DNA of 64,000 nt from a virus. Location of the stretch: IMG/VR virus record IMGVR_UViG_3300047323_000304, positions 96,001-160,000 of that record, one strand, 5' to 3'. The translations under genes were made by a program, and so were the position numbers. Under the pieces are notes generated by a model. That model saw only the letters and a list, made by a program, of their open reading frames with translations. It searched no databases and was not told the origin of the DNA. Shown here piece after piece: positions 44,679 to 55,256 of the stretch; within the stretch, counting starts at the first letter, position 1, and each line of letters starts with the position of its first letter.

Positions 44679-45275
44679 TTAATTCTCTTTTGTTTTCTTT
44701 ACATTATAAACAAATTCTAAATAATGCTTTCTACAATAGCCTTTAGCATAATATTTTCTATTACAATTTTCAGTTATGCAACTATTGGCTTTCATATATA
44801 AAGGATCGCTGTATATATGAAACTTTCTATAATGACTTTCACAATATCCATTAGAATATGATTTGTCATTACATTCATCTACTTGACAAACTTTCGGATA
44901 TTGTATCCTTTTTTCTACTTGCGTTACTTCTCCATATCTTTGTATTTGTGCATAATGTCTTTTACAATATCCCTTTGCTATAACCAAATCATTGCAACCA
45001 TCCACCTTACAAATAGAAATATCTTTTAAGCCTAATTTAAGATCCTTTTCTATTTTCAGTTTTCTTTGTGAAGTCCAATGAGACTTACATAAATTTTTAG
45101 CATAAGTAATTTTATCACAGCCATCTACTGAACATATTGTTTTTTCTCTTCCTAATTCTCTTTCTGGAGTCAATCTACCATGACGTATTATTTGGGTATG
45201 GTGTTTACTTCAATATCCATCATTTGTATGCCTTTCTTTATTACAACCTTCAACTTTACATGTATCATTTGTCAT
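44679..45275 (-). pseudogene. Cys/His repeat (C..DGC...GYC..HY) Zn-finger protein with an in-frame TGA at 45210-45212
   Basis: ATG at 45275 with GAGGTG RBS. It reads MTNDTCKVEGC...DGY*SKHH...RLTPERE, continuing in frame into the track ORF. Confidence 0.7.
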
Positions 45276-45517: not shown

Positions 45518-46040
45518 TTGATTTCTCCTCCTTTTTATCTTTTCTTATAAGCTAATTTAAAGTCACTGGCATAATGTCCTTAAATTAACCCACAATGGGC
45601 ATTAGCATTTGTTTATTATTAATTTTATCACATCTTTCTATGTATTAGTTATTGTTTTGCAATTCGTCCAATCTTTTTAACATATAATCAATCTCTTCTT
45701 GGGTTATAACTGTAGAAGAATAATTTTCTTCATTTGTTTGATCGTTATTTGAAAATATATCTTTAAATTTGTTTTTTATATTGGCTAAAAACATTTTTAT
45801 ATCACCTCCCTTCAATAACTCTTTAAATCCTCAATTTAAATTAAACTTATTCTCTTTATTTTATTATTTTTAATGCTTCTTGAATTTCTATATCAATATA
45901 ATCCGATTGCGTATGTATTCCTGTTAGCTTATTTAATATAATTAGACTTACTGCAAATATTATTACTTTTATCATTAAATTCACCTCTTTATTTTAGTTT
46001 ATTTATAATTAATTTTATATTGTTTCTAAGTTTATTTTTA

Positions 46041-46070
46041 AAGAGTAGACAAAATTATATGTCTACTCTT
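46041..46070. terminator. Hairpin downstream of the peptide gene (probable terminator)
   Basis: AAGAGTAGACA / TGTCTACTCTT, 11-bp perfect inverted repeat. Confidence 0.6.
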
Positions 46071-46089
46071 TCTTTGTCTTATGTATTTA

Positions 46090-46182
46090 TTACCCTCTAG
46101 TTGATGTTCCAGCCATTGCTACAACACTTGATAAAATCATAGTTGCAGTAATGATGAACATAATTAATGTTGCTTTTTTCAT
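46090..46182 (-). CDS. Secreted signalling pre-peptide (AimP/Phr-like), 30 aa; predicted mature GTSTRG; missing from ORF track
   Basis: MKKATLIMFIITATMILSSVVAMAGTSTRG*, with GAGGTG RBS. Basic N-region, hydrophobic H-region and an A-M-A signal peptidase site before the C-terminal hexapeptide. Confidence 0.8.
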   Translation of the reverse strand: MKKATLIMFIITATMILSSVVAMAGTSTRG

Positions 46183-46270
46183 TCGTTTCACCTCTTTCAT
46201 ATATGTATTATTAATATAGAGTTTTTTAATTATATCTATATTAACTTATACATATATGAAAGTGATTTTA

Positions 46271-46927
46271 CTATATAGCTTGTATTATATTACTTTGTTT
46301 TAATAACAATACCTTATTATATAATAATTCATTGACCGTTTTTATTTCTTTTATCAACTCATTAAATTTTTTTTCATATTCAGTATTGTTATTATGTAAA
46401 ATGTCCTCAAGTATCTCAAGGACTATGCTAAAATTTTCTTTTGCTAAATTTAGATCAAACTTTGCTACTAACTTATTTAAATATCCATTATCATTTTTAT
46501 CTTCAATATTTTCATAAATATGATAGCAAAATTCATAACCTTCTATTATTTCTTTTCTCGTCAATTCTTTCTTATGACTTTCAATATAATTAATTAATAC
46601 CCTAGCATATAAACAAGCATTATCCCCTTCTTTATAGCCTATTTCATTATCCATATCATTCTTTAATATTGATGTATAAAATTTTACTTGGCTCATTTCG
46701 TATACTTCTAATCCGTTTTTTCGTCCTATTTCTATCTCTGCTACAATCAAATTATGAAGTATCAATCTTCTTTCTTCTATATAAGTTAACATATCATATT
46801 CACTAAAATACATTTTTTTCAATTTATCTCTTGCCACTTCCACACCTTTATTATCCCAGTCATCAAAAATTTCTCCCAATACTCTTTTTTTTATAGTTTT
46901 CTTTTTTACCATCCTAAATTCACCCAC
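46271..46927 (-). CDS. Putative TPR-like (RRNPP/AimR-like) peptide receptor lacking an obvious HTH
   Basis: Amphipathic helical pattern with Asn/Tyr/Ala periodicity; directly upstream of the pre-peptide gene; fold inferred, not confirmed. Confidence 0.5.
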   Translation of the reverse strand: MGEFRMVKKKTIKKRVLGEIFDDWDNKGVEVARDKLKKMYFSEYDMLTYIEERRLILHNLIVAEIEIGRKNGLEVYEMSQVKFYTSILKNDMDNEIGYKEGDNACLYARVLINYIESHKKELTRKEIIEGYEFCYHIYENIEDKNDNGYLNKLVAKFDLNLAKENFSIVLEILEDILHNNNTEYEKKFNELIKEIKTVNELLYNKVLLLKQSNIIQAI

Positions 46928-46939
46928 TTCATAATTTAT

Positions 46940-47713
46940 TTACATAGCTATTTTTTCCTCTTTCTTTTCATACATTTTATAGTAATCTCTATAATTTAAT
47001 TTATTATCTTCACAAAACTTTTGTAGTGACCATAAAAACGCTTCTCTTTGTTCAAGTAGATTCTTTATTAAACTTTTATTTTTTGCTTTACTTAAAGCCT
47101 TTTCGTATGTGTATATATCATCTAGTATTTCCTCTATATTATCTTGCATATATTTTGGTAATCTCTCTAATGGAGTCTTTGGTTTTAATCTACCATTTTG
47201 TATTCTAATTGCTTGCTCAACTTGCTCCATTATATCCTCAGTCACAGTACCTATTTTATATTTAAATTGTGTTTTTTTATCTATTGGACATAACGTTTCT
47301 GCTAAAATAACTGATTTTTTCTTTAATCCACATTCTTCAAAATTATCTATTTCCACATGTATAGGTAACTTTGATTTACCTAATTGAGACGTAATTGCAC
47401 ATCCACTAATATTTGGACTATATCGGTTGTTTAATTCGTTCGAGGTAACTAAAAAAGGTCTAATTCCACCCTGAATAGAATGTCTTCCTGCTCCCAAATC
47501 AACTTGCCATATTTCATATTGTTTTATTTCTAAAGGTCTATTTACACTTTCCTTATAATTTATTTCCATAGTAACTTGAACTTTATCATTTTCAAGTTTA
47601 TTACTATGTACATTAATTGTCATCTTATCGTTATTTAATTTATTATCCACTTTAACCTCTTGTTCTTTTAACATTTGTAAAGCGTTCATACTTTTTTCAT
47701 TTAAATCTAACAC
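46940..47713 (-). CDS. mazF: MazF/PemK-family endoribonuclease with N- and C-terminal extensions
   Basis: Core EIWQVDLG...QGGIRPFLVTSN...NRYSP...CAITSQ..K.KLPIHVEID...SVILAE...IDK closely tracks B. subtilis MazF. The catalytic Arg and Thr equivalents are retained. Confidence 0.9.
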   Translation of the reverse strand: MLDLNEKSMNALQMLKEQEVKVDNKLNNDKMTINVHSNKLENDKVQVTMEINYKESVNRPLEIKQYEIWQVDLGAGRHSIQGGIRPFLVTSNELNNRYSPNISGCAITSQLGKSKLPIHVEIDNFEECGLKKKSVILAETLCPIDKKTQFKYKIGTVTEDIMEQVEQAIRIQNGRLKPKTPLERLPKYMQDNIEEILDDIYTYEKALSKAKNKSLIKNLLEQREAFLWSLQKFCEDNKLNYRDYYKMYEKKEEKIAM

Positions 47714-47773
47714 AGGTTTACCTCCTATAATTTAACTAGTTATTATTTTTATTTTGTTTCATCTGATAATCTA

Positions 47774-47890
47774 ATATTACCATGTCATTCCATTGTTGTC
47801 AATAACTTTTTAAATTATTTCTTTCATTATTTTTAATTTATTTGTTTCTTCCAATGAGTTAATAATACTATATATGGATTTATAAGTCAA
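47774..47890 (-). promoter_or_regulatory. Sigma-A promoter(s) upstream of mazF, with copies of the AT-rich phage motif
   Basis: TTGACA (47802-47797)-17-TAATAT (47779-47774), a second TTGACT at 47890-47885, and a TAAATTAAAAATAA copy near 47827-47843. Confidence 0.65.
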
Positions 47891-47948
47891 TACTTTTTGT
47901 TAAATATTTTTAATTCTTTTTATTTTATTATACACAGACAAAAAAGAA

Positions 47949-47972
47949 AGGGTTAGATATATTCTAAACCCT
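47949..47972 (-). terminator. Intrinsic terminator after the MrpR-like gene
   Basis: AGGGTTTAGA-loop-TCTAACCCT stem followed by a U-rich tract on the minus strand. Confidence 0.6.
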
Positions 47973-49218
47973 AGTTATTATATAATGTTTCATCTAATTC
48001 TACTATTGTATTATCTTGGGTAGGTGGACTTGCTTCTTTCAATATGACTCCATCTGAATCGACTTTCATACCATCGACTTCTTGTATTTCTTTATTTTCA
48101 AACTTTTCTTCCCCATTAATAAATTCTTGATATCCAATTGCTTCAATAATGTCTTCAACTACCTGTTTTGAAGCTGGATCTTTTAAAGGTTCTAATAATC
48201 TTCTAGCATTATTTCGATATACAATTTTATCTTTAGTTAATGATTGATAAAATTCTACTAAAGCAATCGTAATTTGTGGAGTATGAACTCCTTTAAAATT
48301 TAATTGCACCCATTGAATATCATCAATAGATAATTTTCTTTCTTTTCTCATATCAAGTAAATAATCCATATATCTAGATTTTAATAAATCTCCAATTGCA
48401 ATTCTTGGTACTTCCGCACCTTCACAAGCAAGGTATATTCTTGTATCAATTGTATGTCTACTAATAAGTAAACTACTATCATTTTGATTTTTCTTAGGTT
48501 TCTTTAATACATATCCAAAATCTTCTTCGTCAGTATCTAAACTAAGTTTATATTTATCTATCTGTTTAATAAACCTATCATCCACATCTAATATTCTTGG
48601 AGCTTTACCACTTTCTACAATACTTACTTGTTTCTTTTCATAATTTATATCATCCCATTGTAAACTTCTCATTTCAATTAATTCTTTACCTATTATTCCG
48701 TATCTAGCTAATAATAAAGGTATTGTATGACTTAGCTGTGACGTTTGTTCTATTTTAACTAATAGATTATAAAACTCTCCTAGTCCCCAAACTTTATTAA
48801 TTAATACGTTAACCATACTTTTAGTTGTGCTTTTTCTATCCATAGCTTTCACAGAATTATGTTTTATTTGTTTATTACTGACTCCCCAGTTTTTATATTG
48901 ACTAATGAAATTTATTATTTGATCTTTCATTGCAGGAGAATATTTAAATTTAGTTGCAATAACTTCATCAACTTCTATATTACTAAAAAACATTGCTTCT
49001 TTTCCTAATTGTATTTCATGCTCATTAATATGATTATTATAACATGACCACATGCTTTTTACTGTTACTTCATTATCATACAATTCATTTAAGAATTTAA
49101 GTTTATTGCCTTTTGTTTTATCATAATCTTTTAAAAAGTTTTCATAATCATGTTTTGATTCAGTAGTGAGAATTTTTGAATTATCAAGTTCATCAACAAT
49201 AAAATATTTATTCTTCAT
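47971..49218 (-). CDS. MrpR/YopR-like degenerate tyrosine-recombinase-fold regulator
   Basis: LLLARYGIIGKELIEMRSLQWDDI (box I-like, catalytic Arg absent) and IGDLLKSR (box II-like, H-x-x-R absent); follows a YopQ-like gene as in SPbeta. Confidence 0.6.
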   Translation of the reverse strand: MKNKYFIVDELDNSKILTTESKHDYENFLKDYDKTKGNKLKFLNELYDNEVTVKSMWSCYNNHINEHEIQLGKEAMFFSNIEVDEVIATKFKYSPAMKDQIINFISQYKNWGVSNKQIKHNSVKAMDRKSTTKSMVNVLINKVWGLGEFYNLLVKIEQTSQLSHTIPLLLARYGIIGKELIEMRSLQWDDINYEKKQVSIVESGKAPRILDVDDRFIKQIDKYKLSLDTDEEDFGYVLKKPKKNQNDSSLLISRHTIDTRIYLACEGAEVPRIAIGDLLKSRYMDYLLDMRKERKLSIDDIQWVQLNFKGVHTPQITIALVEFYQSLTKDKIVYRNNARRLLEPLKDPASKQVVEDIIEAIGYQEFINGEEKFENKEIQEVDGMKVDSDGVILKEASPPTQDNTIVELDETLYNN

Positions 49219-50629
49219 TAGAAACCACTTCCTTTGCTATTTTTTCAAAGAAATTATACACATTCTTTACACTAACACCTTTATTAATTAATTTCAATGG
49301 AATTAGTTCTTCTTCAGTTAATGATATTATTTTATTAGAAATTTTCATTAATACATCATCATAATTTTTTAGTTCATGTAGTATATTCGCAACTGCTAAA
49401 TAGCCTATGAAAATGTTAATATCGGCTAAATGTGTTTTATTTATTAAATTATGCATTGTTCCATACTTCATTATAAATGATTCAAACAAATCATCAATTA
49501 CCATTGCCATTTTCCCAGCAGTCATTCGTCTGTTTAATCTGTTGTTAACTTGAATATTAGTACACATTTTTTCTATTGTTTCACTCAAAATAGCTGAATA
49601 AGTTAAATGCCCTTGGTTAGCAAAATAAGATTCATAACTTTTTGATACCTTCTCTTTCAATGTTTCTGATTGTTCAATTAATGCTTCAATAAACATATTG
49701 TAATCACTATTTTCCAATTGACTTAACCAATCTGCTGAAGTGTCTGTTCTTTTAAATATTTGATTTACAATATTCTTACTACCTTGTAAATCTCTTATAG
49801 TTAATTTCAAAGGAAATCCTTTTTTATCAAGTGTTTTGCCCATTTTATAAGCTTCTTCATAAGCTAAAACTCCAGCTAAGGTTCTATGCATACCATCTAA
49901 TGGATTTACTACAGTATAATTATTAGAAGTTCTATCATAGTTTGGCGTAACTTCTACATCACAAATAGTCTCAGTACCATATTTTAGTGTTTCTCTTACT
50001 TGTAAAACATTTTTAGAATTCTCTTGATTTAAAACATTATATATTAACATATCTTCTTCATATGTTCCAGCAATAATAGATTTTGCTATTTCCATTTTAG
50101 CTTTATCATTTATTGAATAAGTTTCAAAGGTTATTTTTTTATCTCCAGTTCCAATAGTTTGATAAACTGGCTCTCTTTGTGCTTCAAAATTATAGATTAA
50201 TAATGTGTTACTATACCAATTATATATGTCAGATATTGGAGCGTAGCCCAAGTAATTATAATCATCAATTTTTATTGCATCTTTTATGAATATAGAATTG
50301 ACTTCTTTTATTTCTTTAACTGCACTATCATATCTAACTAATACGTCATCAGAGAACCATTTGTTAATATCTAATATCTCCATATCAGGAAGTCCATCAT
50401 GTGCTCCATCAACAAAAGCAATTTTTTCATATTCAGATAAGGTTTGCCATTGCTTTTCGCCACCAAATAACGAAGACATTAATCTTATGTTAAGATTCTT
50501 TTCTCTAAATTTCTTAGTAATTGCATCTGAGAGTTTTTTATTTTTATATTGTTCTTTTAATATTTCATTTATAACCTCGAATTGTTTTTCTTCAGGTACT
50601 AAGTCTTTTATATTTTTAATTTCATTCAT
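49208..50629 (-). CDS. YopQ-like protein with a ParB/DndB-type DGxHR motif
   Basis: NPLDGMHRTLA; YNFEAQR; 473 aa; coupled to the MrpR-like gene. Confidence 0.55.
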   Translation of the reverse strand: MNEIKNIKDLVPEEKQFEVINEILKEQYKNKKLSDAITKKFREKNLNIRLMSSLFGGEKQWQTLSEYEKIAFVDGAHDGLPDMEILDINKWFSDDVLVRYDSAVKEIKEVNSIFIKDAIKIDDYNYLGYAPISDIYNWYSNTLLIYNFEAQREPVYQTIGTGDKKITFETYSINDKAKMEIAKSIIAGTYEEDMLIYNVLNQENSKNVLQVRETLKYGTETICDVEVTPNYDRTSNNYTVVNPLDGMHRTLAGVLAYEEAYKMGKTLDKKGFPLKLTIRDLQGSKNIVNQIFKRTDTSADWLSQLENSDYNMFIEALIEQSETLKEKVSKSYESYFANQGHLTYSAILSETIEKMCTNIQVNNRLNRRMTAGKMAMVIDDLFESFIMKYGTMHNLINKTHLADINIFIGYLAVANILHELKNYDDVLMKISNKIISLTEEELIPLKLINKGVSVKNVYNFFEKIAKEVVSNEE

Positions 50630-54308: not shown

Positions 54309-55256
54309 TTACAATCTGTTCAATGGATTATTGATAGCCATATCTCTTAATTCTTCCTCATCAACTCTTAAATAACGTTCTGTAGTTTTTATTGAACTAT
54401 GACCTAATGCACGTTGTATTTGTCTTATATTCGCACCTGCATTATGATTCAATGTAGCAAATGTTCCTCTTAGTTTGTGTGGTGTATATTTTTCGTCTGT
54501 TAATTCTGCTATATTTAAATACTTTTTAACCATTGTTCTAATAGAATCTGTACTTATTTTTGTTTTATAAGTACGTGATAAAAATAAGTATTGTTTTACA
54601 TTCTCAGGATAATCTTCATCAAACCTATAGTTTAAATTATCTTCTATAACTTTTTTGCAAGTATCATCAAGATATACAAATCTTTCTTTTGCTCCTTTTC
54701 CCCATATTTTAATTTTATTATCTTTTATATCTTTTATTTTTATATTTGCAAGTTCTGATATTCTTAAACCACAATGTAGAAATATATTTAAAATACATTT
54801 ATCTCTATAATAGTTAATAGAACCTTTATCTAATGATTCAAGCAATTTTATAGATTGATTTAAGTTTAATGTTATTGGTTCAGTTTTAGGTTGCTTAGGA
54901 CTTTCTAACTCATAAGCTGGATTAAAAGTAATTAATCTTTCTTTGTTTTGTAGATAGTCAAAATAGGCTTTTAAAGTTGCAACTTTCCTACATCTTGTAC
55001 TTGCTTTATTATCACATTCTTTTATTAAATAATTCATAAAATTATGTAGGTGTTTCAACTTAATAGTTTTTATATATTTATCATTAATAGCGTGTCTATC
55101 TTTTCCTCTATTATCTTTAAGGAATTTTACGAACATCTTTAGATCATTCTCATATCCTAATGCAGTTTTTTCTGAAAGACCTTTAATATTTCTGCAATAG
55201 TTTAAAAAATTTATAACACTTTCAGGTAATTCTATATTAATTTTCTCTCTTACCAT
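54309..55256 (-). CDS. XerC/D-family tyrosine recombinase, catalytically intact
   Basis: HCGLRISEL, WGKGAKER, PHKLRGTFAT and LGHSSIKTTERY. Confidence 0.92.
   Translation of the reverse strand: MVREKINIELPESVINFLNYCRNIKGLSEKTALGYENDLKMFVKFLKDNRGKDRHAINDKYIKTIKLKHLHNFMNYLIKECDNKASTRCRKVATLKAYFDYLQNKERLITFNPAYELESPKQPKTEPITLNLNQSIKLLESLDKGSINYYRDKCILNIFLHCGLRISELANIKIKDIKDNKIKIWGKGAKERFVYLDDTCKKVIEDNLNYRFDEDYPENVKQYLFLSRTYKTKISTDSIRTMVKKYLNIAELTDEKYTPHKLRGTFATLNHNAGANIRQIQRALGHSSIKTTERYLRVDEEELRDMAINNPLNRL

Follow-up and report, generated by a model that had tools for sequence, protein, structure and literature searches.

Introduction

How might a phage control a MazF-type toxin that it encodes without a neighbouring MazE? 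The question is raised by a gene in a 64,000-nt stretch of viral DNA (hereafter the window; bases 96001–160000 of the 193,897-nt IMG/VR virus record IMGVR_UViG_3300047323_000304), which has ~25% G+C and carries nearly all of its genes on the minus strand. The record, estimated by CheckV to be 78% complete, is that of a large, SPbeta/c-st-like phage of the clostridial type. The sequence-only reading of this DNA had described the gene as an orphan mazF whose product bears extra residues on both sides of the toxin core. We re-examined the gene together with its neighbours, and the following features are considered here:

49208–50629 (minus): gene for a 473-aa YopQ-like protein; it overlaps the beginning of the MrpR-like gene (phrog_5732, E = 3e-25)
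47971–49218 (minus): MrpR/YopR-like recombinase-fold protein, 415 aa (Pfam MrpR_N_CB, relatives, CST030 of c-st)
47714–47973 (minus): regulatory gap upstream of mazF (terminator, tandem promoters, Shine-Dalgarno sequence)
46940–47713 (minus): mazF, encoding the 257-aa protein MazF-long (PF02452 match, phrog_35650, Foldseek, 16 full-length relatives)
46271–46912 (minus): gene for a TPR-fold partner, 213 aa from the ATG at 46912 (AlphaFold2 model; no Pfam family)
46188–46265 (minus): long, near-perfect hairpin separating the TPR and pre-peptide genes (RNA fold)
46090–46200 (minus): 36-aa pre-peptide gene, with the ATG at 46182 as the likelier start, giving 30 aa (eight other loci have orthologues)
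46040–46071 (no strand assigned): terminator-like palindrome closing the three-gene operon (sequence)

Results

MazF-long has a MazF core with its catalytic residues retained

The open reading frame at 46940–47713 on the minus strand was borne out as encoding a MazF core: PemK_toxin (PF02452) matched residues 64–171 of MazF-long with an E-value of 2.4e-20 and 73.2 bits, against a Pfam cut-off of 23.1. The protein divides into an N-extension (aa 1–63, 47525–47713), the core (aa 64–171, 47201–47524), and a C-extension (aa 172–257, 46943–47200). Extra residues on both sides of the core had been noticed earlier, with the tail called helical; by the Pfam bounds they number 63 at the N-terminus and 86 at the C-terminus, and the tail is helical in the AlphaFold2 model. 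A second family, phrog_35650, which PHROGs labels as a MazF-like growth inhibitor, covers aa 55–254, C-extension included. The AlphaFold2 model, built on 19 sequences, contains a confident MazF barrel of the SH3-like type, and Foldseek matched it to 1ne8, 4mdx, and 4mzm at E-values of ~1e-11 with TMt of 0.85–0.88. Foldseek gave the core 38% identity to the MazF proteins of B. subtilis and S. aureus.

The GGIRP and AITS motifs reported by the sequence-only reading are real and had been read correctly. They occupy aa 82–86 and 106–109, and phmmer alignments to 1ne8 and 4mdx place R85 and T108 opposite R25 and T48 of B. subtilis MazF, which we take, after the structural work on 4MDX, to be the catalytic residues of that enzyme. 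The catalytic Arg and the Thr-Ser are retained in all ten loci described below despite divergence of the core to about 40% identity, and we argue on this ground that catalysis has been retained. Our best reading of the 257-aa protein is that it is a catalytically competent MazF-type endoribonuclease, an RNase activity that we infer from its fold and residues.

The core also varies in ways of its own. Between most of the ten loci it is 33–62% identical, while the attached tail reaches 81–91%, and some cores have a 3-aa insertion beside the catalytic Arg (SEQASDSCGRP). To judge from these alignments, the cores appear to have been swapped or to be under diversifying selection for RNA specificity. 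UACAU is the site of B. subtilis MazF. On the sense (minus) strand of the window, this pentamer was in mild excess, at 125 occurrences against 104 expected (z = 2.0), with z-scores of 3.2 for UACAUA and –3.0 for UACAUU, counts to be read with the caveat that the site of the phage MazF may differ.

The N- and C-extensions differ in definition and conservation

Translation of mazF starts at a GTG (47713) with an AGGAGG 7 nt upstream. Six relatives have an ATG at the matching start, preceded by GGTGGT or GGAGGT, and their proteins begin MLDL or MLAL. We consider the N-extension to be translated because of the AGGAGG 7 nt upstream of the GTG and the alignment of this codon with the ATG starts of the relatives. 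Its frame is open for 30–90 codons in every locus despite a DNA of about 75% A+T. Nevertheless, the N-extension is the least conserved part of MazF-long (23–38% identity), and AlphaFold2 defined it poorly (pLDDT about 40–55). Conservation is confined to the first helix, plus HSN and INYN motifs in the closest subfamily; the N-terminal helix is kept across the wide family. Searches of the N-extension against PDB sequences returned only noise, with no resemblance to any known antitoxin. Two apparent matches were discarded: a tblastn similarity of aa 2–60 to the C-terminus of a gene preceding mazF in Heliusvirales gut phages was not significant by direct comparison (E = 1.2), and a match labelled ‘Enterococcus phage’ was in fact a chromosomal alr-mazF locus.

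The C-extension comprises a conserved linker motif, PKTPLERLP (K-T-P-L-E-K-L in the family), followed by a helical hairpin that AlphaFold2 modelled with confidence (H187–209 and H213–236, pLDDT about 90). Homologues of this region occurred solely on PemK proteins in a region-restricted homology search. It matched no Pfam family, a PDB profile search gave coiled-coil noise only, and an ESM Atlas feature search was without a usable match.

The gap upstream of mazF holds promoters and a terminator, not an antitoxin gene

MazE (PF04014) had zero matches in the whole 193,897-nt record, in which PemK matched once. The gap between mazF and the gene upstream had been said to hold only promoters and a terminator, and this was confirmed: in the 257 nt at 47714–47970 we found no ORF longer than 28 aa, counting every table-11 start codon. 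The terminator of the MrpR-like gene lies at about 47939–47973. Two sigma-70-like promoters follow, TTGACT-17-TATTAT at 47890–47862 and TTGACA-17-TAATAT with an extended TG at 47802–47774, and then the mazF Shine-Dalgarno sequence AGGAGG at 47726–47721. This architecture is kept in six relatives, with two to three copies of an invariant AAAAGTnTTGACA box. Both in the window (47774–47890, minus strand) and in the relatives, each copy of the tandem promoter has a AAAAGTnTTGACA box and then a GA(A/G)ACAAAtTAA-like element; these elements may be operators for the MrpR-like repressor.

The 415-aa product of the gene upstream of the gap is the presumed master repressor of the phage. Its own match to MrpR_N_CB (E = 2.7e-5) falls just under the Pfam cut-off, and its orthologues in the relatives match both MrpR_N_CB and MrpR_C_cat. 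The counterpart in Clostridium phage c-st is CST030, which carries the annotation of a YopR homologue; CST029 of that phage is labelled a YopQ homologue, and a YopQ-like gene is found in the relatives as well. About 4 kb beyond the YopQ/MrpR-like pair, at 54309–55256 (minus strand), lies a tyrosine integrase gene (phrog_1, E = 6e-52), so that in addition to its recombinase-fold repressor the phage carries a true integrase. On the other side of the locus, 44679–45173 (minus strand) encodes a 164-aa protein of repeated CxxC...H zinc-finger units with DUF5763 and WRKY19-type matches, which resembles the N-terminal parts of phage ‘HNH endonuclease’ PHROGs and is without the nuclease part.

mazF is the first gene of a conserved operon

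A search of 5.8 billion proteins yielded 16 full-length relatives of MazF-long (245–291 aa, 37–59% identity). Surrounding DNA was available for ten loci, namely the window, L004/L005, L006, L007, L013, L014, L015, L016, L017, and L019, two of which were reached only via a profile search with the TPR protein. All ten have the same order: an MrpR/YopR-like gene, a promoter gap, a MazF with the C-extension, and then a TPR protein of 202–220 aa. A YopQ-like gene is upstream in every locus whose contig extends far enough, and the TPR gene directly follows the PemK gene in each locus examined. The operon in the window runs from the tandem promoters through mazF, a 27-nt spacer, the TPR gene, the hairpin, and the pre-peptide gene to the terminator. 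The label ‘orphan’ is hence misleading, since mazF is the first gene of a conserved MazF-TPR-prepeptide operon (ten loci, with the peptide in nine). Judged by gene order and sequence, this MazF-TPR-hexapeptide operon is situated at a putative lysogeny switch. The sequence-only reading had tied the gene neither to the signal peptide nor to the MrpR/YopQ lysogeny module.

The module has a narrow distribution. We found no relatives of the TPR protein and the MazF tail in GTDB species genomes, GenBank phages, or PLSDB plasmids, and an IMG/VR search added only one further locus. The C-extension itself also occurs outside the module. In L008/L009, a MazF with the C-extension is followed only by small membrane ORFs and is without a TPR neighbour, and CST027 of c-st has a C-extension and neither a TPR neighbour nor a pre-peptide. 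A more distant MazF with the C-extension (223 aa, no N-extension) was seen in L010 (5001–6427), after a catalytically intact tyrosine integrase. Downstream come an unrelated protein of 203 aa that is TPR-like and a peptide of 40 aa with ...MIDPPGM at its end, and the locus may be an independent version of the MazF/TPR/peptide design.

The second gene encodes a TPR-fold protein

The ATG of the second gene (46912) sits 27 nt past the mazF stop; a mechanically called ORF from the GTG at 46927 would give 218 aa instead of 213. AlphaFold2 modelled the 213-aa protein with a pLDDT of 91.9 and a pTM of 0.87, as ten helices in TPR-like pairs. Its structural neighbours are TPR domains, including PlcR-PapR (Z = 12.2), NprR-NprX (10.7), the phi105 Rap-peptide complex (10.4), and RapI (9.9). 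In an exhaustive alignment, these Z-scores for PlcR, NprR, and Rap were equalled by many generic, unrelated TPR proteins. The modelled fold is thus compatible with an RRNPP-type receptor and does not identify one.

By sequence, the protein had no match in Pfam, PHROGs, NCBIfam, or PADLOC. A profile search of 1.84 billion representatives returned 47 clusters, all of 69–229 aa, and there was no HTH-fused long form among them. A fold search in BFVD was uninformative. DUF6707, an Atlas feature neighbour (score 0.92), was rejected as its family when the HMM did not confirm it, and CST028 of c-st proved not to be a homologue.

The C-extension is predicted to dock on the TPR protein

The sequence-only reading had suggested that the extensions might be docking sites for the downstream protein. 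For MazF-long and the TPR protein, the predicted complex reached an ipSAE of 0.77 (0.78, 0.77, and 0.73 in individual runs) versus 0.01 for the best of three controls. In the calibration of the tool, this level was attained by 58 of 80 solved complexes and by 2 of 110 mismatched pairs, counts that are rough given the custom alignments. The runs shared at least 91% of their contacts, and partner pLDDT was at least 86. We consider the model unlikely to be recall because no homologous complex has been solved.

In the modelled interface, MazF residues 196–233, mainly of the second hairpin helix, face TPR residues 8–24, 53–61, 96–104, 132, and 141–146, which come from five different helices of the repeat. 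Ligands of TPR receptors sit in a concave groove, and we read the model as placing the MazF tail in that of the TPR protein. The linker motif K-T-P-L-E-K-L lies outside the predicted interface. The interface also misses the MazF core and active site, so inhibition by the TPR protein is not explained structurally. Interface residues were not more conserved than the rest: the TPR side gave p = 0.02 in the close family and was less conserved at the interface in the wide family, and the MazF side was neutral.

Independently of the model, pairwise identities across the ten loci correlated strongly between the C-extension and the TPR protein (r = 0.93, Mantel p < 2e-4), a value that could be obtained without binding through a shared recombination history, the tail DNA being contiguous with the TPR gene. 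By contrast, the correlation between the MazF core and the TPR protein was low (r = 0.19, p = 0.22), and the partial correlation of C-extension and TPR protein given the core was 0.93. The window and L014, for example, are 42% identical in the core, 81% in the C-extension, and 64% in the TPR protein. Therefore, tail and TPR protein travel and change together, and the core is exchanged or evolves separately. Of the docking proposal, the part concerning the C-extension gained support (ipSAE of 0.77 versus 0.01; r = 0.93, against 0.19 for the core). Collectively, the model and the identities suggest that the TPR protein docks on the C-extension.

The third gene has the layout of a secreted signalling peptide

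The third gene of the operon encodes, in order, a signal peptide, A-M-A, GTSTRG, and a stop. In nine of the ten loci there is a comparable ORF of 30–40 aa whose N-terminus is basic; a hydrophobic core comes next, then a small-x-small motif for cleavage (AMA, ASA, ALA, AWA, VFA, or AFA), and in all nine the stop falls exactly six codons past this motif. No pre-peptide ORF was present in L019, a distant locus. The predicted hexapeptides are as follows:

Window: GTSTRG
L014: GTTSRG
L015: GTSPRG
L004/L005: GSIGRG
L006: TGGPRG
L007: TTSSRG
L016: TGSSRG
L013: TGSPRG
L017: SGSPRC

They conform to a consensus of xxxxRG, with SGSPRC as the sole exception. As read from these ORFs, a variable, putative specificity part with a fixed R-G end is the layout of AimP and Phr pre-peptides.

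The hairpin at 46188–46265 precedes this gene. It has a folding energy of –27.7 kcal/mol (z = –7.3), and 0 of 200 shuffled sequences folded as well. On its 3' side it reaches up to the Shine-Dalgarno sequence of the pre-peptide gene, and the stem contains the first in-frame ATG (46200). The hairpin may gate translation of the peptide or be a processing site.

Beyond the module, every close locus has a conserved ORF of 38–42 aa at a variable distance. Its N-terminal helix is hydrophobic, and its C-terminal motif reads ...(D/K)EL(K/T/I)II(K/R). It is found at the following positions:

Window: 45856–45984 (minus)
L004: 7812–7931
L006: 10105–10224
L007: 9786–9905
L013: 3953–4072
L014: 4826–4945
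L015: 5663–5782
L016: 5622–5738

The product of this ORF could be a small effector akin to AimX, a type I toxin, or a peptide of the holin kind.

The module resembles known systems in part

With MazF/PemK (EndoA/YdcE) of Bacillota, MazF-long shares the fold, the catalytic Arg and Thr, and 38% core identity. It differs in having no MazE, in carrying the 63-aa N-extension and the 86-aa C-extension, and in being phage-borne, as the leading gene product of an operon that also specifies a TPR protein and a putative secreted peptide, beside a presumed lysogeny repressor. A close named counterpart is CST027 of c-st, a member of phrog_35650 in which a MazF core is joined to a helical tail homologous to that of MazF-long (29% identity, E = 9e-24, aa 55–257). 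Like the phage mazF, CST027 adjoins YopQ and YopR homologues. However, it is without the N-extension and lies upstream of yopQ-yopR, whereas the phage mazF lies downstream; next to it is CST028, a protein of 218 aa with no relation to the TPR protein, and downstream there is no pre-peptide.

Phr peptides bind Rap, and AimP binds AimR, a protein of about 380 aa with an N-terminal HTH and a TPR domain. The receptor candidate in the phage operon has about 210 aa, no HTH, and no sequence match to AimR. In other respects, the module recalls the arbitrium system (AimR-AimP-AimX) of SPbeta-like Bacillus phages. It has a signal-sequence pre-peptide with a C-terminal hexapeptide containing R-G, and in nine loci the pre-peptide gene, whose processing is predicted, directly follows the receptor-candidate gene, an arbitrium-type feature. 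No AimX was identified; a terminator follows the peptide gene, and the conserved membrane ORF lies beyond it at a variable distance. Further likenesses are a TPR-fold receptor candidate, yopQ-yopR nearby, and a functional link to MazF (PMC10769878; 10.1101/2023.04.27.537455). Arbitrium of phage phi3T acts through host MazF, which is blocked or released, and high AimP leaves host MazF active and favours lysogeny (PMC10769878; bioRxiv 10.1101/2023.04.27.537455). In arbitrium, host MazF is controlled via a transcribed antitoxin; here, MazF is phage-encoded and, according to the complex model, apparently contacted directly. With no AimR-type receptor and no AimX identified, the module is not arbitrium by membership.

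We propose that the module works most like Rap-Phr, in which the hold of a TPR protein on its target protein is modulated by a short peptide that is secreted and taken up again. The modelled TPR fold resembles RapI and the Rap of phage phi105 (Z about 10). Unlike Rap, the TPR protein is half the size, is without the N-terminal three-helix bundle, and has no sequence similarity; and the target of Rap is a response regulator, whereas the candidate target here is a toxin tail. In our literature search, no paper came up that links a MazF encoded by a phage to a TPR protein and a peptide.

Discussion

A phage-borne MazF may be controlled by a peptide receptor

To account for the operon, we propose a phage-borne MazF controlled by a Rap/arbitrium-like peptide receptor at a lysis-lysogeny locus, a proposal to which we would give about an even chance of being right. 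The TPR-only protein (roughly 210 aa) would be the control element in place of MazE, its concave groove clamping the second helix of the C-terminal hairpin of MazF. The pre-peptide would be exported by Sec, and a signal-peptidase cut after AxA would leave the hexapeptide, GTSTRG here; once re-imported, this peptide would bind the TPR protein and alter its grip on the MazF tail. RNase activity would then follow the density of related phages or lysogens, and its output would bias the lysis-lysogeny decision. We consider such an output the most likely one because the operon is directly behind the MrpR-like repressor and phi3T arbitrium acts via host MazF. By analogy, we favour the TPR protein as the inhibitor and the peptide as the signal that would release MazF.

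A more specific form of this proposal is possible, and we hold it only tentatively. The secreted hexapeptide would compete with the phage MazF tail for a minimal TPR receptor, or displace the tail allosterically, such that phage density would gate an RNase acting on lysis versus lysogeny. The module would then be an internalised, protein-level counterpart of the arbitrium-to-host-MazF circuit, evolved in clostridial SPbeta-like phages.

The same operon could be read in other ways. We think it unlikely, if worth serious attention, that mazF and the TPR gene form a two-gene toxin-antitoxin system in reversed order, in which the TPR protein is a novel antitoxin, the pair stabilises a plasmid-like prophage or excludes other phages through abortive infection, and the small ORF has nothing to do with it, encoding some secreted or membrane peptide. 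The mazF and TPR genes are closely linked, only 27 nt apart, and always paired; their products are modelled as binding; and L019 has no peptide. The c-st-like phages persist as plasmids, which would suit a stabilising role, and MazEF is a phage defence in B. subtilis (PMC10769878; bioRxiv 10.1101/2023.04.27.537455). However, nine of ten loci keep a signal peptide and exactly six residues with a variable xxxxRG tail, the signature of a diversifying signal and not of a random ORF. The module is also fixed beside the MrpR-like repressor and not among accessory genes, there is no PADLOC match, and the TPR protein is without the DNA-binding domain for autoregulation that is typical of type II antitoxins.

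Alternatively, and close to the intramolecular antitoxin suggested by the sequence-only reading, the C- or N-extension might be a cis-acting autoinhibitor, as in CapRel and other fused toxin-antitoxin proteins. Binding of the TPR protein would then pull the tail off and activate MazF, and the peptide would switch MazF off. That no trans antitoxin contacts the MazF core in the complex model speaks for this idea, as do the conserved linker outside the TPR interface and the N-terminal helix conserved across the wide family. But neither extension is seen over the RNA groove in the structural evidence, the N-extension is of low confidence and has no antitoxin similarity, and the polarity would be opposite to the phi3T precedent; we regard autoinhibition as rather improbable, though still a serious competitor. 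Least convincing to us, with only a slim chance of being correct, is an action on host MazEF, also raised by the sequence-only reading, whereby the phage protein would pair with host MazF in heterodimers or sequester host MazE and would not itself be an RNase. It has a precedent in phi3T, whose proteins target host MazE and MazF (PMC10769878), and the core is 38% identical to the Bacillus-type MazF. Against it, the catalytic Arg and Thr are kept in ten of ten loci despite about 40% core identity.

Implications

In 2023–24, phi3T arbitrium was shown to steer lysogeny through the host MazF toxin; the module described here points to a separate phage lineage with an RNase of its own, physically coupled to a peptide receptor. 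If peptide control of MazF-long holds true, this would be the first peptide-signalling system with a toxin as its direct output, in place of a transcription factor or a phosphatase target, and the TPR-fold protein would be a new MazF-neutralising or MazF-controlling partner. The combination of swapped or fast-evolving cores with matched tails and TPR proteins offers a natural set of variants for studies of specificity. Lastly, phage-phage communication would extend past Bacillus to phages of low-GC anaerobes related to c-st.
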